A DNA stretch of 64,000 nt from a virus (lineage: Duplodnaviria > Heunggongvirae > Uroviricota > Caudoviricetes). The stretch covers positions 8,095 to 72,094 of IMG/VR virus record IMGVR_UViG_3300022555_000023; one strand, 5' to 3'. Every line of letters starts with the position of its first letter. Position 1 is the first letter of the stretch. The translations under genes and the position numbers were made by a program. This document shows, piece after piece, positions 10,161 through 61,613 of the stretch. Below the pieces are notes generated by a model that worked only from the letters and a program-made list of their open reading frames with translations, did no database searches and had not been told where the DNA came from.

Positions 10161-10337
10161 TTACTCAGACCAATCTGAGATTTGAGCGTAACGCTTTGCG
10201 ATATCCAGTTCGATCTGGAGCCGCTTGTTTTGTGCCCCGCTGCTGCACGCCTCGCCGCACCAATGATTCGCGGCGGCCAGCAAGATGATATTCAGGCAGA
10301 CAGAAATAATTAGGGCTGTGAGTAATACGGCGATCAT
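10161..10337 (-). CDS. small membrane protein (58 aa)
   Basis: Below the ORF-track cutoff. GGAGGAAAT then ATG 10337. MIAVLLTALIISVCLNIILLAAA transmembrane helix. 4-nt overlap with 10334..10579. Confidence 0.55.
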   Translation of the reverse strand: MIAVLLTALIISVCLNIILLAAANHWCGEACSSGAQNKRLQIELDIAKRYAQISDWSE

Positions 10338-10579
10338 ATTTCCTCCGTGTTGGTTCGACAGGTCGCTTCCTCCATACGAATGATCATGTCGTAGATACGA
10401 CGTGTTGACTCGTTGCAGGTTGCATCTGGCCCGGCCCGGCTGCCTACTTCATCGGTCTGCAACCACGATTCGTCTACGGCGGAGACCTTCGTATCGACGT
10501 GCGTGCGAGTGTTGGTCTCACGTATCCGCCCCAGGGTATTTTCCATGCGAAGCAAACGCTGCTTCAGGCTGTGTATCAT
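10334..10579 (-). CDS. hypothetical protein
   Basis: 81-aa ORF, AGGGGG upstream of ATG. Confidence 0.6.
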   Translation of the reverse strand: MIHSLKQRLLRMENTLGRIRETNTRTHVDTKVSAVDESWLQTDEVGSRAGPDATCNESTRRIYDMIIRMEEATCRTNTEEI

Positions 10580-11283
10580 ATTGAGCCCCCTGGAAATGCA
10601 GCCCGCCCAGTCATTGGGCTTAAACGTTGCTCGCCTCGGGTGCTTCTAGATTTAAATGTGGGGCGGGGGCCTGAATCTGTTGCCGGGTCGGAAAAGCGAG
10701 TGGCGGCTGTGTTTGGCGCGTCCGACCCGATTTTCAAAGCTGTAGTCCCCGTGACCCCCCGTCCATGAGAAGCATCACGTCTCCTGTCTACATAGATACT
10801 GTCTACATAGATACTGTCTACATAGATACTGTCTACATAGATACTGTCTACATCCGCCCCCATGACTTCCGTTTGCTTCGGTATGATATCCTTATCATAT
10901 TGTTGTTGAATCAACGTGTGACGCGACGCACAACCACGCAACATGTCTATACAGATCTTGTTACGTCGCTGTGCGTTCATTACGCTACTCCTGTACACCG
11001 TCTTCGATCACGCGACGCAACCGTGATCTCCTGCGATCACTGGATGTCTTGCGTTGCACACGTCCATTAGATTACAGTTACTGTTCGCGTGTGTATGATC
11101 TTCATTCATCGTTCGTTTCATGAAGACGCGTCCTGTCACGCGTCTCACGCTCGTCCTTGGGTTTAAATCTTCCCTTAGAGTTGCCCAGCCATCTGTATGA
11201 CGTACACATCGTGCAACGCACGCTGCGTCTACGCTTACCGTTGGTCTTACGTCGTGTGCCCATGTGCGTGTGTGATCTCGTGG
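10580..11283. other. ~700-bp non-coding gap with tandem repeat and hairpins (candidate origin or regulatory hub)
   Basis: Only low-complexity or Arg-rich ORFs here. Inverted repeats GATCACG-N9-CGTGATC (~11007) and GACGCGT-N6-ACGCGTC (~11124). Stem GGGTCGGA..TCCGACCC (~10686-10729). Confidence 0.5.
10784..10854. repeat. 15-bp tandem repeat CTGTCTACATAGATA x 4.7
   Basis: Perfect head-to-tail copies read directly from the sequence. Confidence 0.95.
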
Positions 11284-11478
11284 CTAACAGATGATCTTGG
11301 GTTGTTGGTCAGGCAGCGGGTCTCCAGTCGTTACCCTATTGGGCACACGTGGGTCCTGGATAGGCGGGCCAACAGGAAACGTCCCTAGCCCAGGCTGCAC
11401 TGTAGGCCCGCATGCACACGACCGCACCCACGGGGCGTTGGCCCTTCCACACTTCGGGCACGTCCATCCTTCGTTCAT
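11284..11478 (-). CDS. small zinc-ribbon protein
   Basis: WTCPKCGRANAPWVRSCACG, a RanBP2-like CxxC..CxC pattern. Confidence 0.65.
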   Translation of the reverse strand: MNEGWTCPKCGRANAPWVRSCACGPTVQPGLGTFPVGPPIQDPRVPNRVTTGDPLPDQQPKIIC

Positions 11479-11666
11479 GGCTTGGCTACCTCATGTGCCG
11501 TAATAGTGATACTGCCGCCCGCGTCAACGACCGGCTTATCGTTGGCGACCAATTGGCGTAACAGGCCGATGGCACTTAGGCCGTGAAATTGGGCCTCTGT
11601 GTAACTGGCCTGTGTGATGATCATGTTGTCCTTGTCCTTGGCGACAACGTTGTAGGTCATGGTCAT
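11475..11666 (-). CDS. hypothetical protein
   Basis: Trimmed to ATG 11666 (GGAGCC SD, ATGA overlap with the stop of 11663..12226). Confidence 0.55.
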   Translation of the reverse strand: MTMTYNVVAKDKDNMIITQASYTEAQFHGLSAIGLLRQLVANDKPVVDAGGSITITAHEVAKP

Positions 11667-12471: not shown

Positions 12472-12475
12472 GATA

Positions 12476-15502: not shown

Positions 15503-15616
15503 TTACGGGCTGATAACTCGACGAAAAGATTCGCAGTGCATCAACACATAAACCGTAAGGCACGAGGTCATGATAGAAACTATCGCAGCCACGATCATAA
15601 CATAAGCCAACTTCAT
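15503..15616 (-). CDS. small membrane protein (37 aa)
   Basis: MKLAYVMIVAAIVSIMTSCLTVYVLM. Trimmed from ORF 15503..15700. Confidence 0.45.
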   Translation of the reverse strand: MKLAYVMIVAAIVSIMTSCLTVYVLMHCESFRRVISP

Positions 15617-16850: not shown

Positions 16851-17599
16851 AGTTCACCACCGTTGGGCAGATTCTGGATGCGTCGTCGCTTCGGGCGTAA
16901 CTGCGGAGCAGTCGCACCAGGCGGGTCACGCAGATTGGGAATGCACGGCTCTTGGTCGATTTGCCGAATGCTGGCAAAAACGGCGGGCGGTATCTGCATC
17001 GCACGCATCACTCGCTGTTCTAACTCACGCATCTCCTCGGTGATATCTCGGGCTCGCGGCGTATTGGGGTTGCGCGGCTCACACGTCGGCCCAGTTGGTA
17101 CGACGTAGCGAAGATCGAGGGCGTCTTCAATACTACCGCCGTTGTGGACGCTTGGAATGACCGCGACCACCGAATCATGCATTGGGGCCGCTGTATAGCG
17201 GTGCCGATCCATCGCGTCGCGGAACGGCTCCATCGCTTCAAACGCACCATTCAGTGCCGTATCCAGGCCCGTACCAGCGAACACGTCCATCAGGGTGCGG
17301 CCCTGCGGCGGGTCTCGCAGTTCGGGCGGCTCAGGCCGCGGCGTTGCGCTCTGCACAGCCCACCGTAGACAATGCAAAGAGTTGATCATACAACTGCTCC
17401 ATCCCGATGGTGACGACGGATCAGGACTTGAATGTCTGATCACAGCTTCGCCCGCTTCCTTCAGAGCATCGCGATGCTGGGTGATGCGGGCGACGAAGTT
17501 GACCAGTTCATGATACTCCTCAGACGACGCATGGTTGCGTCGGGCTTGGTTGTAATTCCCCAGCAGTCTGTCCAGCGTTCGTCGTTCGTCTTGCGTCAT
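16847..17599 (-). CDS. hypothetical protein with C-terminal RRRIQ tag
   Basis: 250-aa ORF ending ..PKRRRIQNLPNGGEL*. Confidence 0.65.
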   Translation of the reverse strand: MTQDERRTLDRLLGNYNQARRNHASSEEYHELVNFVARITQHRDALKEAGEAVIRHSSPDPSSPSGWSSCMINSLHCLRWAVQSATPRPEPPELRDPPQGRTLMDVFAGTGLDTALNGAFEAMEPFRDAMDRHRYTAAPMHDSVVAVIPSVHNGGSIEDALDLRYVVPTGPTCEPRNPNTPRARDITEEMRELEQRVMRAMQIPPAVFASIRQIDQEPCIPNLRDPPGATAPQLRPKRRRIQNLPNGGEL

Positions 17600-17603
17600 G
17601 ATT

Positions 17604-18068
17604 TTACTCCATCCATGCCAGACACCCCGGCGTGCTACATCGTCCCCAGCAATGCCCGTTGATAGCCGCTATCGATAGCGTCAGCCGCCCGCCGCAGCCA
17701 GTCGGGCAATCTACGGTCTCCTGAGCGTTCTGGCGTTTGTGGCGGCTCCTGAAGGCATCCACGGTATCGGCGGCCATAGCATGACGTTCGAGAATACGGA
17801 TTAGTTCGATGTTCCTGGCTCGGCCCTCGGCCCGCGTGAACATAGCGAAATGATCACACGGCACGCGGTTTGAGTCCGATGCGTCGCTCAGTTTCCGGCA
17901 CGGTGCACGCAGTGCCCAGCCGATGTCAACCCCGCCTATCAGTCGCCTGATATCGATGTCCATAGCACACGGACGATCCTCTAACATGCCGCGAAAATGT
18001 CGGCATATCTGATCAGGCCCGGCCATCTTCGGGGCGGTTCTCATCCTGCGTCGTTCAGGCATGGTCAT
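17604..18068 (-). CDS. Cys-rich protein with N-terminal ERRRM tag
   Basis: MTMPERRRMRT.. CPTGCGG..GHCWGRCSTPGC. Confidence 0.65.
   Translation of the reverse strand: MTMPERRRMRTAPKMAGPDQICRHFRGMLEDRPCAMDIDIRRLIGGVDIGWALRAPCRKLSDASDSNRVPCDHFAMFTRAEGRARNIELIRILERHAMAADTVDAFRSRHKRQNAQETVDCPTGCGGRLTLSIAAINGHCWGRCSTPGCLAWME
17618..17625 (-). promoter_or_regulatory. GTGTCTGG junction motif
   Basis: 18 nt upstream of ATG 17599. Confidence 0.5.
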
Positions 18069-21553: not shown

Positions 21554-21733
21554 TCATTTGTGAATCAAATAGATCGTCGGCTGCGGCTGAGGTGATTCAG
21601 GCGTGCCACGGTAGTACTTAGCCGTAACCAGAGTGTTCTCGTCCAGGCGACCAAGCTCCAGGATTACCTGAGTCTGATCCAGTTCCTGCCGCGGTATCGC
21701 CTCAAGCCATTGCAGAAGTTGCAGGCCAGTCAT
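21554..21733 (-). CDS. small hypothetical protein (59 aa)
   Basis: Below the ORF-track cutoff: MTGLQLLQWLEAIPRQELDQ.. A junction motif follows its stop. Confidence 0.5.
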   Translation of the reverse strand: MTGLQLLQWLEAIPRQELDQTQVILELGRLDENTLVTAKYYRGTPESPQPQPTIYLIHK

Positions 21734-24256: not shown

Positions 24257-24560
24257 TACTCTGCTGCCTCTCCATCCTGGCCATCATTTCGTTGTAGCTC
24301 GTCACGTCACGCGGCAGGATGGGTCGAGGCTGCCTCCCAGTGTAGTGCGTAAATAACTTGGCGTGTTCCTCGCAGTAGAACGTCGTCCAGCCCATCACAT
24401 AGTCCATAACCGACTTGCCGCCCAGGCCACTGAAGAACACCGGCGTCTGAATTTCCTCAAAGGCCAGGGTGGGTTTGGTCCTGCACTCCTCGCCTGGCTT
24501 ACCGAGAAACTTACCATAGAAGTTATGGTTGTGCTGACAAACGTGAATATCTGTGCTCAT
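24234..24560 (-). CDS. hypothetical protein
   Basis: 108-aa ORF. Confidence 0.6.
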   Translation of the reverse strand: MSTDIHVCQHNHNFYGKFLGKPGEECRTKPTLAFEEIQTPVFFSGLGGKSVMDYVMGWTTFYCEEHAKLFTHYTGRQPRPILPRDVTSYNEMMARMERQQSSDVGLRG

Positions 24561-24901
24561 GACTTCGGCTTTTGCTTCAGTTCGTCGATGTATCGGCCCA
24601 GACGTTCAGACACGTGCAGCAAGTCCTCGTTCTCATATACGGCGTTGCAATCCTCCTCGGTTTCGCACGGCAGCACGGCGCAGCACAACAGTTCGTACCG
24701 CAGCCGGCGGTTGATGATGTGCATCTCCGATAGCTGGCACTCCAAGGAGTGTTGGTCCCGTCCATCGGAATCGATGCGGCTGCCACACACCCATGCGTAT
24801 GGCATGCCGCTGATTCTCCTGGTCGGCTGGGCACCACACTTCTGACAGTGATCCTTTGGAAACTTACTGTCGGGGCAGTAGTTCTGTAGATCGGTGTTCA
24901 T
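24557..24901 (-). CDS. Cys-rich hypothetical protein
   Basis: Trimmed to MNTDLQNYCPD.., ATGA overlap with 24898..25041. Confidence 0.55.
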   Translation of the reverse strand: MNTDLQNYCPDSKFPKDHCQKCGAQPTRRISGMPYAWVCGSRIDSDGRDQHSLECQLSEMHIINRRLRYELLCCAVLPCETEEDCNAVYENEDLLHVSERLGRYIDELKQKPKS

Positions 24902-25041
24902 GATCGCGGACTCATTAGAACGAGGCAAACCAGAGCGGCTACAGTCAGCACCACCATCACGATAAACGTCCAGCAGCCCATCGCGTTGCAGCGGCACGGC
25001 CAGTAGCCGCACTCCTGGCACTTCATAGTTCGGTCGTTCAT
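24898..25041 (-). CDS. small zinc-ribbon/transmembrane protein (47 aa)
   Basis: MNDRTMKCQECGYWPCRCNAMGCWTFIVMVVLTVAALVCLVL. ATGA overlaps at both ends. This is the last 47 codons of the spurious long ORF 24898..25419. Confidence 0.5.
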   Translation of the reverse strand: MNDRTMKCQECGYWPCRCNAMGCWTFIVMVVLTVAALVCLVLMSPRS

Positions 25042-29926: not shown

Positions 29927-30177
29927 TCACGGCTTCACCTTCGCTTTCGCCGCCTTCTCCCGCATCGCCGCGGTCGCCCGCAGGAACGCCTCGGCGTAGT
30001 CAAGCTGGCCCTGAACGTAGCCGTCGTGCCAGTCCTGCGAAGAGTTTACATCAGGAAGGGCTGGATGACCTCGGCGAGCCTATTGGCCACAATACGCCGA
30101 CCAAGGTCGTCCATACCCTTCACCTCATCGTTGAGGATGGCTACAAGCTCGGCTGCGACTTCTGCTGGGCTGTTCAT
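29927..30177 (-). pseudogene. frameshifted paralogue of the 5' part of 28886..29251
   Basis: The 43-aa ORF 30046..30177 (MNSPAEVAAELVAILNDEVKGMDDLGRRIVANRLAEVIQPFLM*) is about 60 percent identical to the N-terminus of 28886..29251. Similarity (LPDVN vs LPAPV) continues in another frame down to stop 29927. Confidence 0.5.
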
Positions 30178-31283: not shown

Positions 31284-32711
31284 TTACTTCACGGCCTCGG
31301 CGGTCTTGACCGCAGCCTTGGCCTTCGCGGGCGGCACGTCCGCTGTGGGCATCGACAATAGCATGGTTGGCCCTGCACCGCTGCTGCCGTTCATTAGGTA
31401 CACCGGCATGCGGCCATCCCAGGTCTCCAGCATGCGGCTCTGGATTTCAAGCTGCTTCAGCATCAGGTACGCCTGCGGGTTCTCCTGAAGTTTCTGTAGC
31501 TCATACGCCTTGGCGTCGGCGACAGCCTGGATGCCCTTGGCTTCGCCCTGCTTGATGGCCAGCACCTTGGCTGCCTCGCCCTCGCCCACGGCCTGCAAAG
31601 CCTTCTTACGCTCCGTGGCGGCTTCCTGTTCGGCCTTGGCGACGTTCTTGTCCTGCTGCTGCTGGAAGACCTTGTCAATGGATGTCTGGATGTTAGGATT
31701 TGCGTAGGTCAAACCACCCTTCATACCAATGCTTGTGATGGTAATTCCTCGCTCGACGAAGTACTTCTGAGCCTCGTCTCGCATCGCCTTCAGGAACTCG
31801 GTCTTCCTATTGCGACCTTCATCCATCGTGTACTTGGCCGCCTCGTCGGAGAAAACCCGCTGGAGAACGGCTCGCACCTCGGTATCCATGACGTCTTCAA
31901 GCCCTACGGTCTTAACGACGTAGTCATCCTTGTATCCGCCGCCCGCCTTGATGACCCTATCCTTGTTCGCCGGATAGTTGAAGAAGAACTTAACCGCGTC
32001 TTCCTCAGTCAGAATACGGGCAACGATGGAGATGCCGCAGGAGAAGTTCACCGAATCACTGGACTCGACGTCAATGGCCTGGTCCCTGAACGACGTTCCT
32101 GTGTGCGGGGCTGCGGTCCACTCTCGCGTACATGGAACGCGATCTACAATGAAAACCTGAGCGTCGGGGATAAACTTGCCGTTGTTCCAACCATGACCCA
32201 TGTCCTGCCAGCGGTACGGAATAAGGATGCGCTTCGACTGCACCCAGGGTTTGCCCTCGGCAGTCTGCTGAATGAACATCTGCGTGGTCTTCGTCGCCGT
32301 TTGCTTGCTGTTGTCCTCCTTCTTCACCATGAATGCCGTCTCGGAATTACCGACATCGACGAAGACCGGAGTATCGTAGGGCGACTGACACCCACCGACA
32401 AGCAATAGCAGCAACAACGCTGGTGACATACTGGTCGCAAAGGTTTTGCCCGCCTTCGTGGCGCGCTTCAGTTCGGGCATGAAGGTCAGCAAGGTCAGCA
32501 GGGAGAACGAAGTCCAGATGATCGTGCCTGGGTACTGCTTGGCGACTTGCCAGAATCGCATGTTCTGCTGCTCATGCCGGGAGCGACTGTGATCAAGCTG
32601 GTTGTAAGCCATTTGGTCGTTCACCTCCGGAACGACAGCGTAGTGCCAGTAGCTGTGAGCCACCAATGCAGCCACGAACATGAATCCTATCAGAAACACT
32701 TTTGCAAACAT
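31284..32711 (-). CDS. SPFH/band-7 (prohibitin/HflK-like) membrane protein
   Basis: N-terminal transmembrane helices and an internal lipobox-like LLLLLVGGC. The SPFH core and Ala/Glu/Lys-rich coiled coil (..QQQDKNVAKAEQEAATERKKAL..) are typical of the family. Confidence 0.8.
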   Translation of the reverse strand: MFAKVFLIGFMFVAALVAHSYWHYAVVPEVNDQMAYNQLDHSRSRHEQQNMRFWQVAKQYPGTIIWTSFSLLTLLTFMPELKRATKAGKTFATSMSPALLLLLLVGGCQSPYDTPVFVDVGNSETAFMVKKEDNSKQTATKTTQMFIQQTAEGKPWVQSKRILIPYRWQDMGHGWNNGKFIPDAQVFIVDRVPCTREWTAAPHTGTSFRDQAIDVESSDSVNFSCGISIVARILTEEDAVKFFFNYPANKDRVIKAGGGYKDDYVVKTVGLEDVMDTEVRAVLQRVFSDEAAKYTMDEGRNRKTEFLKAMRDEAQKYFVERGITITSIGMKGGLTYANPNIQTSIDKVFQQQQDKNVAKAEQEAATERKKALQAVGEGEAAKVLAIKQGEAKGIQAVADAKAYELQKLQENPQAYLMLKQLEIQSRMLETWDGRMPVYLMNGSSGAGPTMLLSMPTADVPPAKAKAAVKTAEAVK

Positions 32712-32791: not shown

Positions 32792-32938
32792 TTAGCGAGC
32801 CACCTCAACTGCGACGGTGGTCGCTACGATATCGGGGTGGCCGTCCTGATGAGTGTCGGTGATCGCGTACCGCGTCACCACCTTCGATCCTGCACAACCC
32901 GCACATACTAACAGAACCAGAATAGCTACGATCCGCAT
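32792..32938 (-). CDS. small lipoprotein (48 aa)
   Basis: Below the ORF-track cutoff. MRIVAILVLLVCAGCAG lipobox. Confidence 0.55.
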   Translation of the reverse strand: MRIVAILVLLVCAGCAGSKVVTRYAITDTHQDGHPDIVATTVAVEVAR

Positions 32939-35175: not shown

Positions 35176-35255
35176 GGCGTTTCTCCTTTTGGGCCAGCAC
35201 ACGGCGGCCACGTTCGGTAATCGTGATGCTGCAGTATCGTCGCCGCACCCACCGT

Positions 35256-35693
35256 TTAACCAGACACTGCACTTCTATCACGGTAATGTACTTTGCGATG
35301 ACAGTTTGAACAAAGCACTATGCACTTCCGAACCTCGGCTATGATTAGATCAATGGGAACACTAGTATTTATCATGTGCCTAACGCTATCAACTTTCTCG
35401 CCAGTAACATGATGAAAATCTAAACACGCAATATGCGTTTCCCCACACGAGCATCTATCAACACCGAGCACAGCAAGTAGACGTAACTTCATGTTCTCGC
35501 TACGCTTCCGATAACGTATACGACATGATTCCCGTGCATAGCTCGTTCTTACATAAATCCTCGCAGCCTCTCTTCGGCATGATAGACACGTGGATACGGG
35601 CCGACCGCGTGACATACAGAAGTTGCCCGTAATCGGTTTAGTGTACCCACATTTAGCACATCGCTTCGTTGCTATTTTCTGTCGTTCAACCAC
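35256..35693 (-). CDS. HNH homing endonuclease
   Basis: CSCGE..LDFHHV..N..CSNCHRKVH. N-terminus MVERQKIAT. AT-richer than its flanks. Confidence 0.8.
   Translation of the reverse strand: MVERQKIATKRCAKCGYTKPITGNFCMSRGRPVSTCLSCRREAARIYVRTSYARESCRIRYRKRSENMKLRLLAVLGVDRCSCGETHIACLDFHHVTGEKVDSVRHMINTSVPIDLIIAEVRKCIVLCSNCHRKVHYRDRSAVSG
35260..35267 (-). promoter_or_regulatory. GTGTCTGG junction motif
   Basis: Overlaps the last codons and stop of HNH gene 35256..35693. Confidence 0.5.
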
Positions 35694-35715
35694 GACTGTT
35701 CTCCAAACGCCGCCC

Positions 35716-35760
35716 GCCCCACCAGCAGAAGTAGCCGCGAAGTTAGATCGCTGGTGGGGC
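35716..35760 (-). terminator. perfect 11-bp stem hairpin GCCCCACCAGC/GCTGGTGGGGC
   Basis: Read from the sequence, 23-nt loop, about 20 nt upstream of the HNH start. Confidence 0.4.
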
Positions 35761-35822
35761 GTTTGGCGTGTACGGGAGTTCGCGGCTACCGTCGAGTTAA
35801 CAACTCAGTATAGCTTATCATA

Positions 35823-46211: not shown

Positions 46212-46442
46212 TTACTTCGGCTTTCCTTTACTCCCTAGTTTAGACGCGGCCCATTCCAGTCGATCCTGGGCGACGCGAGCGATGCGTCGTAGCTCAGCCG
46301 AATCAAACCGGCTGGCCTGCATAACTTCAACAAACTCAACATCGGTTTTGGCCATCCGAGCCATATCAAGGGGATCGGTGGGCCACAGAGATTCACTGTG
46401 AATTCTGTTCGTGGGTTTGTGCGGCTGCGGCCTGGGCTTCAT
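46212..46442 (-). CDS. hypothetical protein
   Basis: 76-aa ORF. Confidence 0.55.
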   Translation of the reverse strand: MKPRPQPHKPTNRIHSESLWPTDPLDMARMAKTDVEFVEVMQASRFDSAELRRIARVAQDRLEWAASKLGSKGKPK

Positions 46443-46552
46443 GGTGATCTCCTATTCCATCGCCTGACTGCTTCGGTCAGGCCCGCGGCTGCGATCTTGG
46501 GATACCAGTAGCTCAGACAGTTCTTCTGAATGTTGTCGATGATACTACTCAT
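46439..46552 (-). CDS. small hypothetical protein (37 aa)
   Basis: AAGAGGA SD before ATG 46552. Confidence 0.35.
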   Translation of the reverse strand: MSSIIDNIQKNCLSYWYPKIAAAGLTEAVRRWNRRSP

Positions 46553-46682
46553 CGGAATCCTCTTCGTTACAGATTTCTTTGTGACCACAGTCGACGTTCC
46601 TCGCCTTTCTTCTTGTACGGGGCTCGATATAGTGATTTGCATACAGGGCAAGGTTGGCAACCGTACATATTGCTGTTTGCAT
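46545..46682 (-). CDS. small hypothetical protein (45 aa)
   Basis: MQTAICTVANLALYANHYIEP.., the tail of ORF 46545..46826. Confidence 0.35.
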   Translation of the reverse strand: MQTAICTVANLALYANHYIEPRTRRKARNVDCGHKEICNEEDSDE

Positions 46683-46699
46683 GGTCGTGCTTGATGATG

Positions 46700-46882
46700 T
46701 TACTCGCCAGCTTCGGCATGTCTCGTCACCCATGTCGCCCGGCGTACCCGTCGCTGGCGACGCTCGATGTCGTGGTGTCGCTGGCAGTACCGCCCGGCCA
46801 CGGCCTTCTCTGGGCACTTGATGCACAGACCGGCCCGCTGGTGCAGTATCTGGTACTTCCGCTGCCGCGATACATGTTCCAT
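46700..46882 (-). CDS. small CxxC..CxxH protein
   Basis: Trimmed to MEHVSRQRKY..CIKCPEKAVAGRYCQRHH. Confidence 0.5.
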   Translation of the reverse strand: MEHVSRQRKYQILHQRAGLCIKCPEKAVAGRYCQRHHDIERRQRRVRRATWVTRHAEAGE

Positions 46883-49346: not shown

Positions 49347-49646
49347 TCAACCACTACCGTCGCGGTAGTTTATTTCGTTATCGTCGTCATCTCCACCCGC
49401 AGACGCGTGCAGTAGCACGGCCTCACGTATGCCGCATGCAGCCGCCTGCTGAAAGAACCTAATTGCCTGGTCGGGGAACTCCGTGAACCGCCGGCGTACT
49501 GATTCCACGTCCTCGGTAGCCAGCCAGTTAAATAGGAAGTCCTGCACAGCATCATCTGTTTTCTCCCAGACGCTGCGTAGCTCCTCCAGAGCCATGTCCT
49601 GGTTCGACCGGCCACGCAGGAAAGCAATGCGTTCGTCTTCATTCAT
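49347..49646 (-). CDS. hypothetical protein
   Basis: 99-aa ORF. Confidence 0.6.
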   Translation of the reverse strand: MNEDERIAFLRGRSNQDMALEELRSVWEKTDDAVQDFLFNWLATEDVESVRRRFTEFPDQAIRFFQQAAACGIREAVLLHASAGGDDDDNEINYRDGSG

Positions 49647-49882
49647 GATTTCACCTCAGCCGCGTATGCGGCGTCCTCCTCGGCCTGGTTTCGTAAACCA
49701 AGCTCGACGTCCCATGTATTACCTCGTTGTAGGCTACACCACATGAACGATACATTCTTCCCACTATCGGTTTTTACTACATAAGTTTTACCGCTAGGTC
49801 CGCACTCATCGATAACGCCATGTAGCCCACGATGTTCCGCGGGATCGCATAGGACTTCTTCGCCTACACTGAACGTAGTCAT
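49643..49882 (-). CDS. hypothetical protein
   Basis: 79-aa ORF, 4-nt overlaps. Confidence 0.55.
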   Translation of the reverse strand: MTTFSVGEEVLCDPAEHRGLHGVIDECGPSGKTYVVKTDSGKNVSFMWCSLQRGNTWDVELGLRNQAEEDAAYAAEVKS

Positions 49883-53615: not shown

Positions 53616-54686
53616 TCATTCAGACACAGATGATTCTAGACGTCGCCGCGTCAATTGCCGGCCTACGGTTTCCTCCGGGTTGGCCCGTGGAAACTGCGGG
53701 CCGGCCAAGCACGCCTTGCCCGCTGCCTTCAGGTCGTCGCTGATCTGGTCGGCGTTGCTGGCGCAGTAGTGATTGAACAGGTCACCGGGCGGCAGACGCC
53801 GGGCGGCCAAGTCCATCGGGCTCATGTGGTGAACATCGCGTTCCACGAGCCTGCACCCGCACAGCACGGCCCTTTGGCGTTCGGCAAACTCCTGCACCCG
53901 CCGGCGGCACTCGTTCCAGGTGTCAAACTCGGCCCGCTTCAGCCGCACCTCGATCTTGATCATGTCGCCGGGGTTCACCCGCATATCGGTAAGCCGGTCG
54001 GTGCCATCGATGACCAGCTTCCGCTTGGCCGGGAACGGCGGGTTGATATCCTCGTAGTCCCGACCACTGTCGAAGATCACCCGCGGTATGTATTCATCGC
54101 CGAAGTCAACGTGGTACGGTGCCCCGACATACTCGATGTTCGCCAGCCGCTGCGGAACATGAACGTCCCCGCAGTATACCCTCGCCCGCGTACCCGAGAA
54201 CGTCGAAGTCGGCAGGCCATCTAAACGCTTCCCGCCGCCGATACTGGCCCCGTGGAATGTCTGGTGGGCGAATATGTAGTCGAAGTCGGACATCCTGTAG
54301 CCTTCGGCGTACTGCCGCACAGCCCGCGTGTGAGGCAGGAACAGGCACTTGGACTCGCCGAGGGTGCGCTTGGTAGGCTCCAGAAAGAACTCCACGCCCG
54401 TATGCCGCAGCCAACGGAAGTAGGGCACGTCGGGGTTCACGTAATCGTGGTTGCCCATCAGAACGATAGTCGGAGCGGCGTCGTCGAGGAGTTTCAGCCC
54501 ATCGGCAATAGCGTTCGCCAGGGCCGAAGAGTGTCGATCCTTGGATTCCGTCAAATCCCCAAGGATTATGATATAGTTCACGTGCCGCCGCGTCGCCTCA
54601 CCCGCCAGCCACTCAAAGATTCTCAATCGATAGGCGTCTCGCAGGTTATCGGTCTCGTGCAGGTCGCTGGCTATCAGTAAGTTCAT
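53616..54686 (-). CDS. Mre11/SbcD-like metallophosphoesterase nuclease
   Basis: LIASDLHE, ILGDLTE, MGNHD and FAHQTFHGA calcineurin-like motifs. C-terminus ..LTRRRLESSVSE*. Confidence 0.8.
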   Translation of the reverse strand: MNLLIASDLHETDNLRDAYRLRIFEWLAGEATRRHVNYIIILGDLTESKDRHSSALANAIADGLKLLDDAAPTIVLMGNHDYVNPDVPYFRWLRHTGVEFFLEPTKRTLGESKCLFLPHTRAVRQYAEGYRMSDFDYIFAHQTFHGASIGGGKRLDGLPTSTFSGTRARVYCGDVHVPQRLANIEYVGAPYHVDFGDEYIPRVIFDSGRDYEDINPPFPAKRKLVIDGTDRLTDMRVNPGDMIKIEVRLKRAEFDTWNECRRRVQEFAERQRAVLCGCRLVERDVHHMSPMDLAARRLPPGDLFNHYCASNADQISDDLKAAGKACLAGPQFPRANPEETVGRQLTRRRLESSVSE

Positions 54687-54808
54687 GATGGTTCCTTAAC
54701 TCCGTAGCGGAACGGGCTTGTGATGTAGCCGTCAGTTCCTTCGCATAGTTCGGGCGTGTTCAGGTGGCGGATACATTCACGATACTTGTTGTATCGGGTG
54801 CTGTCCAC
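54683..54808 (-). CDS. small hypothetical protein (41 aa)
   Basis: GTG 54808, ATGA overlap with the Mre11-like start. Below the ORF-track cutoff. Confidence 0.35.
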   Translation of the reverse strand: MDSTRYNKYRECIRHLNTPELCEGTDGYITSPFRYGVKEPS

Positions 54809-54833
54809 CCGTACTAACAGACACCCGCACCGT

Positions 54834-55451
54834 TCACATCGCGGCTGAATTGATTCCGCCATTCGTCACCACGCCATAGTATGTGATCAGCAGGGCGTCG
54901 CATACCGCCATTTGCTCCTTCTTCGTCTTCTGCCACACGTCCAGATCGGGCATCAGTTCCTGAGCCCGCTTGCGGATATCCTCTTTGTGTTCAGCCTGGA
55001 GCAGTGCTTTGACCGCCTTGGTCGTCCGTGTGCTGCCGTCCTGCTTGCGGAAGTCCACGGGCACTGGCTTGCGGGTCGTCGGGATGTTCATGGCCCGCTG
55101 CCAAGTGGCGGGCTGCACCTTAACCGGGATGATATCCAGAGCTGTCATGAACGCCAGAAGTCGCCCGTAACCTACGCCAAACTTGAATGCCCCAGCCACG
55201 CCCATCGCATAGGCATGCACGGCCTCGATGTAGACGCTGACGTTGCTTGGATCCGCGATATGCTGCCGCAGCCAAGCCCACAGTTCGTCGTTCCCTTCGG
55301 GCATCCGCTTGACCAACATGATCGCGTTGGGTCCGGTCTCGGTGACAGCCAAGCCACCGTTCATGCCGGGATCGATACCCATGATCAGTCTGCGTTCGGG
55401 AGTGATCACCTCACGCCAGTCGGTAGTTTTAATGCGGCGGCGTTCGGTCAC
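54834..55451 (-). CDS. RuvC-like Holliday junction resolvase, N-terminal ERRRIKT
   Basis: IMGIDPGMNGG, VYIEAV, ..PATWQRAM.., VCDALLI catalytic pattern. Confidence 0.75.
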   Translation of the reverse strand: MTERRRIKTTDWREVITPERRLIMGIDPGMNGGLAVTETGPNAIMLVKRMPEGNDELWAWLRQHIADPSNVSVYIEAVHAYAMGVAGAFKFGVGYGRLLAFMTALDIIPVKVQPATWQRAMNIPTTRKPVPVDFRKQDGSTRTTKAVKALLQAEHKEDIRKRAQELMPDLDVWQKTKKEQMAVCDALLITYYGVVTNGGINSAAM

Positions 55452-56024: not shown

Positions 56025-56564
56025 TTACGAATCTGCTCGCACTAAACCACCGTTTCGTATCTTCACCAGCATCGGGTCACCGTGCCGCTTGAACCGCTGG
56101 TAGTGCTTCCGACACATTCCTAATTCAAAGGACTGATCACCACAAAAACATACTACACTAGTTTTCCGCTTTCCTCGTTTCCCGTGCTGCCAGTGCCACT
56201 TAGTATGACATCGCGGGCATAGCGTCATTCGGTTAGACGGATCGTTGTTCTCTTTGTCGCCATCGATGTGATGTGTTCCTAACCGCTTCCGCTGTCGTTT
56301 GCACATCTCGCACCGCCGTTTCTTCGGCAGTTTGCTGTTCCTGGTTGCTACGGTCTCCAGAGACAGCTTCGGCACCTCGATCAGCTTGTAGCCGATGCGC
56401 TCGTTACGGCACAAGGCGACCTGCCGGTCGGCGGGCACGTGCGGCGTCTCGTTGCCGGCACCGACATAGGTCTGCTGCGATACGCCCCACACGTAGAAGG
56501 GCATGATGTATTCACCGTCCACGATCACGTGAACCGTATCGCCGGGTTTCGGTAAGGTAATCAT
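56025..56564 (-). CDS. HNH homing endonuclease
   Basis: CEMCKR..THHIDGDKENNDPSNRMTLCPRCHTKWH plus C-terminal CG..MCRKHYQRFKRHGDP. Confidence 0.85.
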   Translation of the reverse strand: MITLPKPGDTVHVIVDGEYIMPFYVWGVSQQTYVGAGNETPHVPADRQVALCRNERIGYKLIEVPKLSLETVATRNSKLPKKRRCEMCKRQRKRLGTHHIDGDKENNDPSNRMTLCPRCHTKWHWQHGKRGKRKTSVVCFCGDQSFELGMCRKHYQRFKRHGDPMLVKIRNGGLVRADS

Positions 56565-56731
56565 CCTAAGTCTTCTCCACAGTTATTACAGCGCATGTCA
56601 GGCTCCAGGGCGTTCACGTTATACCACACCACGCCGCCTGGATGATTTCGCACGCGGCACCAGAAATTCGTCCAACCCGTGCAGCCGTCGAACAGGTATA
56701 GCCACCAACTTAAACTAAACCATTTCATCAT
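56561..56731 (-). CDS. small hypothetical protein (56 aa)
   Basis: MMKWFSLSWWLYLFDGC..CNNCG, ATGA overlap with the HNH start. Confidence 0.45.
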   Translation of the reverse strand: MMKWFSLSWWLYLFDGCTGWTNFWCRVRNHPGGVVWYNVNALEPDMRCNNCGEDLG

Positions 56732-56821
56732 CGCATCCACAGGGTTGTTGCTAAATCACCCGGCACTTCGCGGGCCAGACGCACCTTGAAGTCGGGGAAC
56801 GGTACGTCATACACAACCAGT

Positions 56822-56829
56822 CCAGACAC
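56822..56829 (-). promoter_or_regulatory. GTGTCTGG junction motif
   Basis: Intergenic, 90 nt upstream of ATG 56731. Confidence 0.45.
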
Positions 56830-56863
56830 GGTGGCGTTGTACGCGTTGCAGATACGTGGTATA

Positions 56864-56871
56864 GTGTCTGC
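56864..56871 (+). promoter_or_regulatory. GTGTCTGC variant co-oriented with a plus-strand gene
   Basis: 1 nt upstream of ATG 56873 of the plus-strand HNH gene. Confidence 0.4.
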
Positions 56872-56872
56872 T

Positions 56873-57265
56873 ATGGATATCACGTGTAACCTCTGCGGCG
56901 TTCCTCAACCGACCACCGAATTTTCGGGACTACGCAACCGTTCGTATAGATGTAAAACGTGCTGCACAAAAAGGAAAAACGAGTGGCGACGTCAGGTACG
57001 GGTTGCTGTACTACAAATGCTCGGCGGATGTTGCTGCAAATGTGGGTACAACAAACATCCTGAAATATTACAAGCAGATCATATTGTTGCTATCGGCGGC
57101 GGACGTCATAGAACTGGTGATAACACGGTCAGGGCCTATAAAAACCCCGAACTCTACCAACTCATGTGCCCAAACTGCCATGCTCTGAAAACTATCAAGG
57201 ATAAGATCATTCTTCGGAACAAACAGACTAAACATTCAACGCCAAAGGCTACACCCGCCGCTTAG
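56873..57265 (+). CDS. HNH homing endonuclease (plus strand)
   Basis: Trimmed to MDITCNLCG. CCKCGY..ADHIVAIGGG..NPELYQLMCPNCHALK. GTGTCTGC lies 1 nt before the ATG. Confidence 0.75.
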   Translation: MDITCNLCGVPQPTTEFSGLRNRSYRCKTCCTKRKNEWRRQVRVAVLQMLGGCCCKCGYNKHPEILQADHIVAIGGGRHRTGDNTVRAYKNPELYQLMCPNCHALKTIKDKIILRNKQTKHSTPKATPAA

Positions 57266-58005: not shown

Positions 58006-58479
58006 ATGTCCCGCCACGCCATACCACTTGATGTTAGATTCCACACTGTGCCCAAACGCCGAAGAATCGGAGGATGTTTGATCTGGATGGGCGGAACCAG
58101 AAGTGGCTATGGAATGATAGGATCCGGTGGCACGAACTCGAAGCCACTGTACGCCCACCGCGTCGCTTATGAACTCGCTTACGGCCCAATACCGGATGGT
58201 ATGTATGTCTGTCACCACTGTGATAACCCACCGTGCGTCGAGCCTACACACCTGTTCCTCGGAACACAGCAAGATAACGAAGACGACTGTGTTTCCAAAA
58301 GACGGCACATGCACGGAGCCACCCACTATAACGCTAAGATGACTACACCCCAGGTTATTGAAGCTCGTCTCCTTTACGCGACTGGTGAATTTGGGTACTA
58401 CCGACTCGGAATACGATTTAACGTCAACCCCACAACGATTCGTAACATCATCAAGGGCTATACACGACAGCTTGAATAG
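58006..58479 (+). CDS. HNH_3-type homing endonuclease (plus strand)
   Basis: AAGGAG SD. YAHRVAYELAYGPIPDGMYVCHHCDNPPCVEPTHLFLGTQQDN. Confidence 0.85.
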   Translation: MSRHAIPLDVRFHTVPKRRRIGGCLIWMGGTRSGYGMIGSGGTNSKPLYAHRVAYELAYGPIPDGMYVCHHCDNPPCVEPTHLFLGTQQDNEDDCVSKRRHMHGATHYNAKMTTPQVIEARLLYATGEFGYYRLGIRFNVNPTTIRNIIKGYTRQLE

Positions 58480-58483: not shown

Positions 58484-59044
58484 TCAAAATGGGACATCGT
58501 CCACCCTACCACGGTTCGCGGCTATGGTTCGCAGCCTAAGATTCCTATAAGAACAGTTCGCCCTATTCTTATCTCGATGATCTACATCGTAACCATCCGG
58601 TATTAGTTTTCGGCGAACGGCCATGTAAACTAATCTGTGAACCATAGCACCCTTGCGGTGACCGTTCCAGTAGATGCGGACGCTGGGGTAACCATTACGG
58701 TCTAAATCCTGCTTGAGGATGACCCACTGCTTCGTCCACTCGTGACAAACCTTGCGGTGCTTACGAACCACGCCGGTTATCGGATTGACCTTGAGATGAC
58801 CTTCCTCGATCAGTTGTAGTATTTGATCATCGGTCATCCTGCGGTATTTGCGCTCGCGGTAGTTTCGCAGCTTCTCGACGTAGACTGCGTCGGTTCGCCA
58901 TTTGCCGCCGCAGGCAAGGCACTTCACCTCGGAATACTTACTGGCCACCTCGTCGCCGGTCGTCGATGTAGCCACGAACCGCCGCGTGCAAACGTAGTTA
59001 CTCCGGGTTCTACATCCCGGCAGACAGCGGCAGCCTTGAGCCAT
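58484..59044 (-). CDS. HNH_3-type homing endonuclease
   Basis: NGYPSVRIYWNGHRKGAMVHRLVYMA..DVDHRDKNRANCSYRNLRL. Confidence 0.8.
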   Translation of the reverse strand: MAQGCRCLPGCRTRSNYVCTRRFVATSTTGDEVASKYSEVKCLACGGKWRTDAVYVEKLRNYRERKYRRMTDDQILQLIEEGHLKVNPITGVVRKHRKVCHEWTKQWVILKQDLDRNGYPSVRIYWNGHRKGAMVHRLVYMAVRRKLIPDGYDVDHRDKNRANCSYRNLRLRTIAANRGRVDDVPF

Positions 59045-59048
59045 AGTC

Positions 59049-59198
59049 TCATCCCTTGGTATTCCTGATGAATGGGCGTAGGAACCACCAGGGACGGCGT
59101 TCGGGCTGACCTGGGATATGGTGAACGAGACCCCACAGCCTGTCGTATTGTTGCTCGCTGAGCTTCAGGCCGTTAACGGCCCGGATAAATGCCCACAT
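59049..59198 (-). CDS. small hypothetical protein (49 aa)
   Basis: MWAFIRAVNGLKLSEQQYDRLWGLVHH.. Below the ORF-track cutoff. Confidence 0.4.
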   Translation of the reverse strand: MWAFIRAVNGLKLSEQQYDRLWGLVHHIPGQPERRPWWFLRPFIRNTKG

Positions 59199-59203
59199 GG
59201 TTC

Positions 59204-59416
59204 TCAGCGAGTCCACGGTTCACCTCTGTGGTTTAATCTCATGCGACGGTCGATGATACGTCGGGCCACACGCGATGCGCAGTCCAGATCTTCGGGCGAC
59301 AGAATACCTTGCTGTACAAGCTGAATCATGTGCATCGCCGCCTCATGAATCTTCGGATCATTCTGGTAACGCCGTTCGTCGTCCTCGGCCTGGCAGTTCA
59401 ACGGGTCGTCGTCCAT
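59204..59416 (-). CDS. hypothetical protein
   Basis: 70-aa ORF. Confidence 0.55.
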   Translation of the reverse strand: MDDDPLNCQAEDDERRYQNDPKIHEAAMHMIQLVQQGILSPEDLDCASRVARRIIDRRMRLNHRGEPWTR

Positions 59417-59417
59417 A

Positions 59418-59672: not shown

Positions 59673-59675
59673 CTC

Positions 59676-60248
59676 CTAGCGACGTCCGCGTCGTGCCGCC
59701 CAGCGAGCAAATAGGCCCTGGCGTTCGCGCCCGCCCCGTGACGATCCGTACTGATCACCCTGCGGTGTCGTTTCAGGGGCGACGGCTGGGGGCGTCTGGC
59801 CGACTTCGCGTCGGGCCTCGGCTGTTTGCAGGGGATGCGTGATAGCCCGCACAGCGTTTGCCACAGGGCCGTTGGGTCGATTGCCCACGAATAACTGGCA
59901 GAACTTGACCCCGTTGTTGTATGACGCTGCGGCCCCGGCGTAGGTAAAGTTGCCGGTTGTATTGCACGCCAGCCAGCCACTGCTGATAGCTCCGCCGTCG
60001 CAGCCGCCGAAGTCGGCCCATGATCCCCTGGGCAGGAACGCGAAGTCGTTCCCGGTGTGGTGATGCATGCCGTAACTGGCACGATAGTCGGCGCAGGCCA
60101 TCGCACCCTGCGTCATCGCTGCGTCCCGCTGGAATGCAGGCATACCGTGCTGGGCACGAATTGCGTTCACTTCATCGAGAGCATCGGTCGCGGCATTGGC
60201 AATGCCCGCAATGCATACGACCACAAAGAACAAAACTGACTTCATCAT
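59676..60248 (-). CDS. secreted CAP/SCP/PR-1-like protein
   Basis: Trimmed to ATG 60248 (TAGGAGGA SD). Signal MMKSVLFFVVVCIAGIANA. ALDEVNAIRAQHGMPAFQRDAAMTQGAMACAD resembles the SCP-like family. Confidence 0.55.
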   Translation of the reverse strand: MMKSVLFFVVVCIAGIANAATDALDEVNAIRAQHGMPAFQRDAAMTQGAMACADYRASYGMHHHTGNDFAFLPRGSWADFGGCDGGAISSGWLACNTTGNFTYAGAAASYNNGVKFCQLFVGNRPNGPVANAVRAITHPLQTAEARREVGQTPPAVAPETTPQGDQYGSSRGGRERQGLFARWAARRGRR

Positions 60249-60276
60249 CTTCTTCCTCCTAATGGTGAAATTCGCC

Positions 60277-61470
60277 TTAGCTACCGTACTTCGAGAAGTT
60301 CGGCGAGAATGACTCCTCGATCTTGTCCCACTCGGCCCGCACCACTGCGGACATACGCTTGGATTCGCTAATGTACATTTCACGCGGCTGTTTGTCCAGC
60401 CACTTCAGGTACGTTCCAGGTTTTCGTTCATCGAACAGTTCCCACTTCTTCACCTCAACTAACCAGTCTGCCATCGATTCGATGTCATCGATGCCGTAGT
60501 CAAAGATCACGGGGAACTCGCACTCGCGGAACGGCGGGCCACACTTGTTCTTCTTGCACTTGGCCTTGATGCGAACACCGACCACGCGTTCGATGCCGTT
60601 GACCGAGCGTTTGATCTGGCCAATATGCGACAGCCACACCACCCACGAAGCGTAGAAGTCCAGGGCTTTGCCGCCGGCACGCGTCGCCTTCTCGCCGAAC
60701 GATACATTCAGCTTGTCGCGTAGCTGCGAGATGACTATCAGGGTCACCTTGGCGGAGTTCAAAGGGCCGGCCAGGGTGCGGAAGAACTGTGACATGCGTT
60801 TGGCCTTCGCCATACCGTAACTGGCCTTGTCCATACCGCCATCCAGTTCGGCCTGATCGCTCAGGGCATCAAGGCTATCGATGATATACAAGCCTGGCAC
60901 GCGACGGCGTTCACACTCGGCAATGAAGTCCTTCACGTCCTGAAAGAACACCTCGACGATACGGCACTCCTCGACGAAGCTGATTCTGTCCATCGGCAGT
61001 CCCATGCGGCGGGCATAATTCACATCGAACGCGGCCTCGGCGTCGTTATATCGCGTGATGCCGGTCGGATAGGCGATGGAAAAGTTGGCACACGCCTCGA
61101 TGCATACGCCTGTCTTGTTCGTTGACTGCCAGCCAGCGAAGTTCACCACGCGGCCTTCAGGGAACGCTCCGCCACCACCACCACCAATCTCGCAGTCCAG
61201 AAGGGTACAGCCCGAACCGAATCGTTTAACACGGATATCCTCCATGTCGCCCGTGAGCCCGTAGGCCCCACCGTCGCGTACCAACGGCTCGTCATCGGTA
61301 TCGCGGGCGGTCTTGCGGCGAGTAGCCTTAGCCGTGCGACGTGGGGCTGCACGTGACCCGCGGGCCGGTGTTTCATCTTCGGTTGACTCGACGTCTTCGT
61401 CCTCTTCCTCACGCTGCGGAGGTGGGGGCGTTGCCGTTACGAGACGTCGTCGAACTATTTTCTTCGCCAT
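60277..61470 (-). CDS. RecA-fold recombinase-like ATPase
   Basis: Degenerate P-loop GWQSTNKTG, Walker B LYIIDSLDAL, GGKALDFYAS as in RecA. Acidic N-terminal region preceded by MAKKIVRRRLVT. Confidence 0.65.
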   Translation of the reverse strand: MAKKIVRRRLVTATPPPPQREEEDEDVESTEDETPARGSRAAPRRTAKATRRKTARDTDDEPLVRDGGAYGLTGDMEDIRVKRFGSGCTLLDCEIGGGGGGAFPEGRVVNFAGWQSTNKTGVCIEACANFSIAYPTGITRYNDAEAAFDVNYARRMGLPMDRISFVEECRIVEVFFQDVKDFIAECERRRVPGLYIIDSLDALSDQAELDGGMDKASYGMAKAKRMSQFFRTLAGPLNSAKVTLIVISQLRDKLNVSFGEKATRAGGKALDFYASWVVWLSHIGQIKRSVNGIERVVGVRIKAKCKKNKCGPPFRECEFPVIFDYGIDDIESMADWLVEVKKWELFDERKPGTYLKWLDKQPREMYISESKRMSAVVRAEWDKIEESFSPNFSKYGS

Positions 61471-61613
61471 GATCTAACCTTCCTGATGCCCCGTATGCAC
61501 AGTCCTATGAAGAAGACATACAACATTCCGGGTGCGGTCAAAATGATGAACGGGAAAGTCCAAATCTTGTGAACTTTCTCCGCCTCGTCGCATACGTCTA
61601 AAAACCAGTTCAT
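61455..61613 (-). CDS. small membrane protein (52 aa)
   Basis: GAGG SD, MNWFLDVC..FPFIILTAPGMLYVFFIGLCI. Overlaps the recombinase start. Confidence 0.45.
   Translation of the reverse strand: MNWFLDVCDEAEKVHKIWTFPFIILTAPGMLYVFFIGLCIRGIRKVRSWRRK

Follow-up and report, generated by a model that had tools for sequence, protein, structure and literature searches.

Short open reading frames between the genes of an uncultured phage are probably a mixture of small genes and gene remnants

Phage genomes contain thousands of genes shorter than 50-60 amino acids (aa), many of them encoding transmembrane proteins. How such genes can be told from chance open reading frames (ORFs) and from gene debris is the question raised by a stretch of 64,000 nucleotides (nt) from the caudoviricete record IMGVR_UViG_3300022555_000023, hereafter the window. 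In the gaps between its longer genes, an original prediction made from the sequence placed 'at least ten' genes below a 60-aa cutoff, at eleven positions referred to here as c1 to c11 (Table 1). All eleven coordinate pairs correspond to intact minus-strand ORFs, each with a stop codon, ten of them starting with ATG and one (c8) with GTG. Nevertheless, the count of at least ten genes appears overstated: seven to nine are realistic, the expected total is about seven, and c6 and c7 fail. It is rather probable that the best explanation is about seven real small genes, two scars and an open remainder. The gaps would then hold a mixture of real short accessory genes, debris of gene loss and one unsupported ORF, c8. 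The real set would consist of the membrane peptides c1, c2, c4 and c11, the predicted lipoprotein c5, the soluble proteins c3 and c9 and, probably, c10; the debris would be represented by c6, derived from a deletion of about 3.6 kb, and by c7, which overlaps a frameshifted zinc-ribbon pseudogene. Six of the eleven candidates are called as genes by a public annotation pipeline.

Table 1. Coordinates and properties of the candidate ORFs (c1-c11) and of the other features discussed. SD, Shine-Dalgarno site; dG, free energy; moderate SD sites span dG -4.9 to -5.8. Gap-filling p is the share of dinucleotide shuffles of a gap that yield an ORF of equal gap coverage.
Feature	Coordinates	Strand	Description	Public pipeline	Overlap with neighbours	SD site	Gap-filling p	Coding score (density ratio)	Standing as functional gene
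c1	10161..10337	-	58 aa, N-terminal membrane helix (MIAVLLTALIISVCLNIILLAAA...)	called; identical protein on 24 contigs	ATGA, upstream side	strong (GGAGG, dG -9.5)	0.04	neutral	very likely
c2	15503..15616	-	37-aa single-helix membrane peptide	called; 13 contigs		moderate (GAGG, dG -5.7)	0.54	low (~0.15)	likely
c3	21554..21733	-	59-aa soluble protein, conserved C-terminus PQPTIYLIHK	called		moderate	0.23-0.25	supportive (15-61)	at least close to certain
c4	24898..25041	-	47 aa, Cys-rich N-terminus (CxxC...CxC), then one membrane helix	never called	ATGA, both ends	none	0.11	supportive	likely
c5	32792..32938	-	48-aa predicted small lipoprotein, signal peptide ending LVCAGC/AGSK	called; 27 contigs		moderate	0.33	supportive	at least close to certain
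c6	46439..46552	-	37-aa deletion chimera	called	ATGA downstream; 8 nt shared with c7	moderate		neutral or low	highly unlikely (scar, probably translated)
c7	46545..46682	-	wrong reading frame, no gene as proposed	never called	8 nt shared with c6	none		low	practically nil at most
c8	54683..54808	-	41-aa ORF, GTG start; 59-aa ATG version (54683..54862) contains CxxC	never called	ATGA, downstream side	weak at originally chosen start	0.25	neutral (1.2-1.8)	doubtful
c9	56561..56731	-	56 aa, conserved Cys/His residues	never called	ATGA, both ends	weak at originally chosen start	0.04	neutral or low	at least close to certain
c10	59049..59216	-	55 aa, revised GTG start at 59216; original version 59049..59198, ATG, 49 aa	called in other assemblies only, as 55-aa form		AGAGG, dG -7.1 (GTG); weak, dG -3.0 (original ATG)	0.04	neutral	somewhat favoured (55-aa form)
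c11	61455..61613	-	52 aa: acidic N-terminus, one helix, basic tail (RGIRKVRSWRRK)	called	16 nt into RecA-like gene	strong (GAGG, dG -7.2)	0.07	slightly low (0.3-0.4)	likely
43-aa gene	30046..30177	-	extra small gene, 43 aa	called	ATGA onto upstream 78-aa gene			highest among small ORFs (170-290)	
51-aa gene	56728..56883	-	extra small gene, 51 aa, GTG start, directly upstream of c9	called		AGAGG, dG -6.5		(9-25)	
Zinc-ribbon remnant	46567..46719	-	50-aa ORF (MPKLASNIIKH...CQPCPVC...), ancestral N-terminal two thirds						probable pseudogene
60-aa ORF	46700..46882	-	MEHVSRQRKYQILHQRAGLCIKCPEKAVAGRYCQRHH..., CxxC...CxxH motif	not called				neutral	
154-aa ORF	17604..18068	-	154 aa	not called					probable
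76-aa ORF	17432..17662	+	76 aa	called					
79-aa ORF	49643..49882	-	79 aa	not called	ATGA, both ends	good (dG -7.9)			real, judged by its homolog
145-aa ORF	35256..35693		145 aa					non-coding-like	
Band_7/SPFH gene	31284..32711	-	475-aa membrane protein						
205-aa gene	54834..55451		205 aa						
HNH endonuclease gene	56025..56564								
HNH endonuclease gene	58006..58479	+							
HNH endonuclease gene	58484..59044								
Tandem repeat	10784..10853		perfect 15-bp repeat CTGTCTACATAGATA, 4.7 copies						
Inverted repeat	35707..35769		20-nt arms						
Inverted repeat	62216..62356		17-nt arms, 94% complementary						

The firmest evidence for small genes comes from homologs. Nine candidates, joined as one query, were searched library-wide against 1.84 billion cluster representatives, and the best 150 of the 222 hits were listed; the statements on homologs that follow refer to these hits. 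For c3 the search retrieved P0162 (62% identity, E 3e-9) and P0187 (53%, E 6.5e-8), the latter carried on an unrelated 297-kb phage-like contig with which the window has only c3 in common. The homolog of c5, the 47-aa protein P0252, is 47% identical in the library-wide phmmer search (E 7e-6) and 55% identical by local tblastn. The contigs of P0162 and P0252 (578 and 811 nt, respectively) are too short for testing neighbouring candidates. In codon alignments the proportion of nonsynonymous differences (pN) is 0.26-0.29 for c3, against a synonymous proportion (pS) of 0.93-1.06; the corresponding values are 0.35 and 0.77 for c5, and 0.25 and 0.90 for c9 when compared with the phage-like contig L049. 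Since their homologs show pN of 0.25-0.35 against pS of 0.77-1.06, we consider that c3, c5 and c9 can hardly be anything other than conserved real genes.

The predicted lipoprotein c5 is encoded upstream of the 475-aa Band_7/SPFH membrane protein, its other neighbour being a 138-aa orphan. Its lipobox Cys is aligned with that of the homolog (...LVLLVCAGC/AGSK in c5 and ...VVLLVGC/SGTK in P0252); the Cys and positions -1 and -2 fit the pattern [LVI][ASTVI][GAS]C, and position -3 is atypical. Profile matches of c5 are weak and confined to the signal peptide. With the small lipoproteins of bacteria and phages (Lpp-type, including o-spanins and surface-exclusion proteins) c5 shares an n-region (MR), a hydrophobic core and a Cys following small residues (LVCAGC), which is retained in the 47-aa homolog (LLVGC). 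It differs from them in having Cys or Val at position -3, where Leu is usual, in matching no family and in having no i-spanin, endolysin or holin beside it. The neighbouring Band_7/SPFH protein itself displays an internal lipobox-like motif, LLLLLVGGCQSP, after its N-terminal hydrophobic segments.

The most widespread of the candidates is c9, which the pipeline missed. Full-length matches to it were found in approximately 200 representatives of 50%-identity clusters; these proteins are 54-80 aa long and 40-65% identical to c9. Residues C25, R26, H30, E43, P44, C48 and C51 are invariant in 15 sequences of the family and conserved in at least 90% of 83, so that the family, with proteins of roughly 55-80 aa, can be recognized by the signature C-R-x3-H ... 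E-P-D-x2-C-x2-C. None of the models in Pfam, PHROGs and NCBIfam relevantly matched c9 or 15 members of its family, a tblastn search of 50,697 GenBank phage records returned no match at E <= 1e-3, and a hand-made motif scan of cellular genomes (GTDB) recovered no more than two members of the family, each from a metagenome-assembled genome. The AlphaFold2 model of c9 has a mean predicted local distance difference test score (pLDDT) of 86.7, and neither model nor sequence found a match in PDB or BFVD.

The conserved Cys and His residues of c9 suggest zinc binding, and CxxC-type metal-binding peptides are common in phage genomes. As in small zinc-ribbon and zinc-knuckle proteins, candidate ligands are arranged as C-x4-H ... 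C-x2-C within a compact fold that is confidently predicted; in contrast to these, c9 has the ligand pattern C/H/C/C and two Trp-rich helices at the N-terminus, and it matches no curated model or structure. On one phage-like contig a c9 homolog is flanked by an ERF recombinase gene on one side and by a gene for a LexA-type DNA-binding domain on the other; the surroundings include an HNH gene and SbcCD-like genes in the window and ERF in L049. It is conceivable, if on the whole unlikely, that c9 represents a new zinc-binding regulator or inhibitor of DNA-repair or defence proteins of a kind that gene callers would systematically miss. Being large, phage-borne and outside Pfam, PHROGs and NCBIfam, the c9 family could reasonably be proposed as a new family entry and taken up in functional work.

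Comparison with relatives led to the opposite conclusion for c6 and c7. Searches with the SbcC-like protein of the window identified relatives R1 (loci L039-L044, 78% identity) and R2 (L045, 81%), and searches with the RecA-like protein identified L047, L048 and L046 (68%, 59% and 57% identity, respectively). Residues 1-25 of c6 correspond to the N-terminus of a gene of 246 codons in R1 and 244 codons in R2 (96% and 84% identity), whereas residues 26-37 align with the C-terminal end of a CxxC zinc-ribbon gene of 83 aa (L045 6924-7175, ending in AEAVRRWNRRFS before the stop). In R1 the two pieces are separated by about 3.6 kb encoding DUF3310, ThyX and other proteins, all of which is absent from the window. 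Judged from these alignments, c6 is an in-frame deletion scar that joins two unrelated genes and is no independent gene; the two parent genes supplied its SD site and start codon as well as the ATGA overlap at its stop. The gene caller and the original prediction both accepted it because the fusion is in frame and the translation signals were kept, and c6 is probably still translated as a 37-aa peptide.

As for c7, only its last ~15 codons (DCGHKEICNEEDSDE) are in the frame of a 62-aa zinc-ribbon gene of R1 (L039 11458-11646), and its first ~30 codons represent an alternate frame of the same gene. Substitutions relative to L039 number 7, 5 and 22 on codon positions 1, 2 and 3 of the ancestral frame, position 3 of which is position 2 of c7. 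In addition, an SD site is missing from c7, whose upstream flank is untranslated over 202 nt. What survives of the ancestral gene is the 50-aa zinc-ribbon remnant listed in Table 1, which, according to DNA and protein alignments to L039, has suffered a frameshifting deletion of 17 nt and lost the second CxxC pair; it is probably a pseudogene. Both cases resemble the gene remnants found in mosaic phage genomes: c6 combines the start region of one gene with the stop region of another, c7 and the remnant carry the 17-nt frameshifting deletion, and an analogous fusion lies beside the RecA-like gene of L047. The c6 remnant differs in that its fusion is in frame, with the translation signals kept.

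The L047 fusion (L047 199-501, compared with L048 115-755) is a 100-aa gene upstream of the RecA-like gene, composed of an 82-aa gene and the last ~20 codons of the 131-aa gene of L048, and appears from this comparison to be a second deletion chimera of the c6 kind. Compared with R1 and R2, the uncalled 60-aa ORF is inserted sequence, situated between a 66-aa gene and the zinc-ribbon remnant.

The translation signals on which the candidates had been proposed, SD sites and/or overlaps with neighbours, are only partly present: the ORFs are intact in all eleven cases, SD sites are found in some, and c4 and c7 have none. The SD sites of c1 and c11 fall into the top 1-5% of the null distribution. 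The suggestion that most of the candidates are translationally coupled is correct as geometry, seven of the eleven overlapping a neighbour, and 4-nt overlaps occur at 28 of 95 junctions between robust genes of this genome. However, since scars can inherit both features, overlap and SD site alone are no proof of a functional gene. Taken singly, an ORF in a gap exceeds chance only weakly (Table 1). Set-wise, more gaps are filled than expected by chance: of the nine, four are filled at p <= 0.043 and five at p <= 0.065. ORFs of 30 aa or more in the same gaps number 35 on the minus and 24 on the plus strand, a strand comparison that does not discriminate.

Stronger intrinsic evidence was obtained from hydropathy, measured as the Kyte-Doolittle mean over 19 residues. 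Values of at least 2.0 are reached by 0.1% of simulated ORFs and by four of the 124 coding-strand ORFs of 30-59 aa, namely c1, c2, c5 and c11, all of them intergenic. The maximum for c1 is 2.88, a value equalled by none of 3000 shuffles of its own composition, and that for c5 is 2.44 (0 of 3000 composition-keeping shuffles). For c4 it is 2.96 (0 of 3000 local shuffles), and for c11 2.31 (about 0.03% of local shuffles). The value of c2 is also 2.31, but this peptide lies in a T-rich stretch (37% T) and about 3% of local shuffles equal it. With local-composition shuffles, p is thus below 0.001 for c1, c4, c5 and c11 and 0.03 for c2. Use of the test is supported by c5, which belongs to the same statistical class and is proven independently by its homolog. 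Accordingly, c1, c2, c4, c5 and c11 possess, beyond chance expectation, a hydrophobic stretch of membrane-spanning length (about 19-23 residues); their topology is a prediction. The description of many candidates as single-helix membrane or zinc-ribbon peptides is therefore borne out for these five as far as the membrane is concerned; its zinc-ribbon part agrees with c9, with the N-terminal portion of c4 and perhaps with the longer version of c8.

Among the membrane peptides, c1 overlaps the 81-aa gene upstream by 4 nt and is likely to be a real gene. The SD site of c2 overlaps the upstream stop codon; c2 is probably real and is the weakest of the group. Located directly upstream of the RecA-like gene, c11 is likely a real gene occupying a variable slot. 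Except for themselves, c1, c2 and c11 have no homolog among the hits listed. The only holin match, that of c2 to the Phage_r1t_holin profile (E 0.066, 13.7 bits), is below the cutoff of 26.9. No endolysin domain was found in the Pfam annotations of the pipeline calls or in a scan of the four genes adjoining c1, c2 and c4. Holin and spanin roles for the membrane peptides were dropped, there being no lysis context.

The case of c4 is complicated by the pipeline gene 24557-25072 (171 aa), within which c4 is located in another frame, across the N-terminal 57 codons. We clearly prefer the model in which c4 replaces these 57 codons. It creates two canonical ATGA junctions, one with the 96-aa gene upstream and the other with ATG 24901, which opens a 114-aa version of the next gene, whereas the 171-aa model requires an unusual 35-nt overlap upstream. 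At third positions of the disputed codons the c4 frame has a GC content of 0.73 and the 171-aa frame one of 0.54, compared with a genome mean of 0.69, and the 20-residue hydrophobic helix following the Cys cluster never occurred in 3000 local shuffles. The pipeline's alternative is one gene of 171 aa beginning at 25072, in which case c4 would be an alternate-frame ORF that arose by chance. The start at 25072 is preceded by a GAGGG SD site (dG -6.4), and neither c4 nor ATG 24901 has one, which weighs against c4; over most of 24900-25070 the two frames score about equally, and the sliding coding score prefers the c4 frame only at 24965-24995. Among the hits listed there is no homolog of c4. On balance, a single 171-aa gene seems improbable without being negligible. 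Probably, c4 is also the single ORF behind the rate of 1 in 46 for same-strand alternate-frame decoys in the hydropathy test.

Candidates c8, c10 and c11 share the fate of having no counterpart in the nearest relatives. Lack of conservation in relatives, which the original prediction had named as evidence against its frames, was indeed observed for these three within the relatives that could be reached. However, this absence is weak evidence because slot content varies between the relatives. The slot upstream of the RecA-like gene, filled by c11 in the window, contains the 131-aa gene in L048 and a deletion/fusion remnant in L047, and L048 lacks the block formed by a 70-aa gene and c10. At the position of c8, R1 has an unrelated 57-aa ORF with an identical ATGA overlap, and in L046 the spacer is just 35 nt long.

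Two further assemblies of this phage have the 55-aa form of c10 among their gene calls; the form corresponds to library entry P0139, its only homolog among the hits listed. The SD site before its GTG is better than that before the originally chosen ATG, 18 nt further downstream (Table 1), and we lean towards c10 being a gene with this revised start. What speaks for c8 is its 4-nt overlap with the next gene, which is SbcD-like. No SD site precedes either of its starts, and the hits listed contain no homolog of the 41-aa form (the 59-aa form was outside that search); as a gene, c8 is doubtful.

In R1 (L039 522-2080) the homolog of the 205-aa gene of the window is interrupted by an HNH endonuclease gene, and a second copy of its C-terminal half, nearly identical to the window version, forms a separate 137-aa ORF further downstream; the arrangement is suggestive of a past homing endonuclease insertion. 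The window itself contains several HNH endonuclease genes (Table 1); one of them, on the plus strand, occurs in only some assemblies of the phage, and in the others its place is taken by different genes. Genes with a Cas12f1-like_TNB domain, as in TnpB, are found within the replication/recombination region of two relatives (L039 17755-19563, 602 aa, and L046 11085-12149, 354 aa); there is none at the corresponding place of the window.

Several observations weigh against a set of about seven real genes and would favour a stricter reading in which only c3, c5 and c9 are genes, the other candidates being chance spacer ORFs and the pipeline calls c1, c2 and c11 false positives. Coding scores, which support c3, c4 and c5, are neutral or low for c1, c2, c8, c9, c10 and c11, and the stricter reading takes those of c1, c2, c4, c8, c10 and c11 as neutral to low. 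For the same six, the hits listed include no homolog from outside this phage; among them are c1, c2, c4, c10 and c11, which are regarded here as likely or favoured. In addition, c8, c10 and c11 lack counterparts in the nearest relatives as described above. For c1, c2 and c4 the support is wholly intrinsic, and no relatives covering 10-30 kb were found. A single ORF fills a gap of ~150 nt in 4-50% of shuffles. Hydrophobic ORFs are possible without being genes, because antisense ORFs inside real genes reach a hydropathy of 2.0 in six of 163 cases. Finally, for every candidate, translation is something that we infer.

Against the stricter reading, none of the four hydrophobic small ORFs among the 124 on the coding strand is located inside a gene, the shuffle values of c1, c4, c5 and c11 are accompanied by the independent proof of c5, and the SD sites of c1 and c11 stand out from the null. 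Missing homologs are uninformative here because many longer genes of this phage, such as one for a 283-aa protein, are orphans as well. The Markov coding scores were given little weight: they fail on the demonstrably ancestral zinc-ribbon ORF and are insensitive for short genes of odd composition. We therefore regard a restriction to c3, c5 and c9 as quite improbable. It is very improbable that the short ORFs are functional genes in all eleven cases, or in at least ten: as a set of intact coding-strand ORFs, seven overlapping a neighbour and six called by the pipeline, they do exceed chance, but c7 is out of frame with a conserved ancestral gene (7/5/22 in the other frame), c6 fuses the ends of two unrelated genes, and c8 has no SD site, no listed homolog and a neutral coding score.

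In the preferred reading, nearly all genes of the phage lie on the same strand and form long polycistronic chains. Within these, c1, c2, c3, c5, c10 (from GTG 59216) and c11, which have SD sites of their own, would be initiated independently on the polycistronic mRNA, and c4 and c9, which have ATGA overlaps and no SD site of their own, would probably be translated by termination-reinitiation from the upstream gene. One may guess, by analogy, that the products act on the host envelope or bind phage or host proteins. The candidates resemble the accessory short genes of phage early regions and variable slots in lying on the coding strand, in being chained by stop/start overlaps, in encoding many single-pass membrane or Cys-rich products, mostly without a family, and in the variation of slot content between relatives. 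They do not differ from these genes in kind and would be new instances, known here from sequence alone.

The phenomenon is thus an ordinary one that does not change the understanding of phage biology, and its value lies chiefly in annotation quality. A standard gene caller missed the deeply conserved c9, probably mis-started the gene over c4 and accepted the scar c6, and real genes could be separated from debris here only by comparison with relatives. What can be taken from it is a lead worth following, the c9 family, together with c6 and c7 as false positives that are instructive.

The phage is uncultured, with a circular genome of about 192 kb, and the window falls within its early, replication and recombination region. 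The ENA metagenome contig k141_83342 (192,532 bp) matches it at 100% identity, barring a 30-nt difference in repeat number near 10.8 kb, and the ends of this contig overlap by 141 nt when mapped inside the window, as is typical of circular assemblies built with k = 141. The coding strand is the minus strand, to which 104 pipeline gene calls were mapped between 9.7 and 64 kb; two pipeline calls are on the plus strand. Pfam domains in the pipeline calls comprise RecA_N, AAA_23 (SbcC-like), Metallophos (SbcD-like), 5'-3' exonuclease, Sigma70_r4 and Band_7, as well as epimerase, spermine synthase and AdoMet decarboxylase; DNA_pol_A is encoded just outside the window.

There is no close cultured phage. 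Megablast with 20 kb of the window against GenBank phages gave no match, and the best identities to proteins of cultured phages (from Edwardsiella and Vibrio) are 41% for the RecA-like and 31% for the SbcC-like protein. Relatives in IMG/VR have in common with the window only a core of RecA-, SbcC-, SbcD- and SSB-like proteins (30-46% identity) and lack all the small ORFs. Further assemblies of this phage show at least 99.9% identity and therefore offer no diversity for selection tests. The 283-aa protein, used as an anchor for 10-30 kb, had no homolog at E <= 1e-10 among 5.8 billion sequences, of which 1,290 word-sharing candidates were scored, and scans of JGI metagenomes with a 324-aa protein and a RuvC-like 205-aa protein gave no match. 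Comparison of c1-c10 (c11 was outside the scan) with Pfam and PHROGs produced only sub-threshold signal-peptide or transmembrane noise, and an Rfam scan of the whole window detected no RNA family.

Two small genes overlooked in the original prediction, of 43 and 51 aa, are called by the pipeline (Table 1). The pipeline itself did not call the 79-aa ORF, which is taken to be a real gene on the ground of its L046 homolog (43% identity over 79 aa, E 1e-13). In place of the 154-aa ORF the pipeline called the 76-aa ORF on the plus strand; the 154-aa ORF, with a homolog on the phage-like contig L049 (31% over 140 aa, E 3e-10) that adjoins a Phage_rep_O-like gene, is probably a real gene.

The assertion that almost no unexplained space remains did not hold, since after the addition of every plausible gene there are still 14 gaps of at least 90 nt, totalling 4.1 kb. 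The largest are 10580-11474, 35176-35822, 61888-62457 and 56884-57235, of which the second and the fourth had gone unmentioned. The 145-aa ORF and the inverted repeats in these parts of the window are listed in Table 1. The gene-free stretch 10580-11474, the largest non-coding one, lies at the boundary between sequence of 61% GC (1-10 kb) and of 53-59% GC (10-62 kb) and contains the tandem repeat CTGTCTACATAGATA. The source contig is 30 nt longer here, equivalent to two more copies, indicating that the copy number varies. An iteron-like origin and a regulatory array are both conceivable roles for this repeat.

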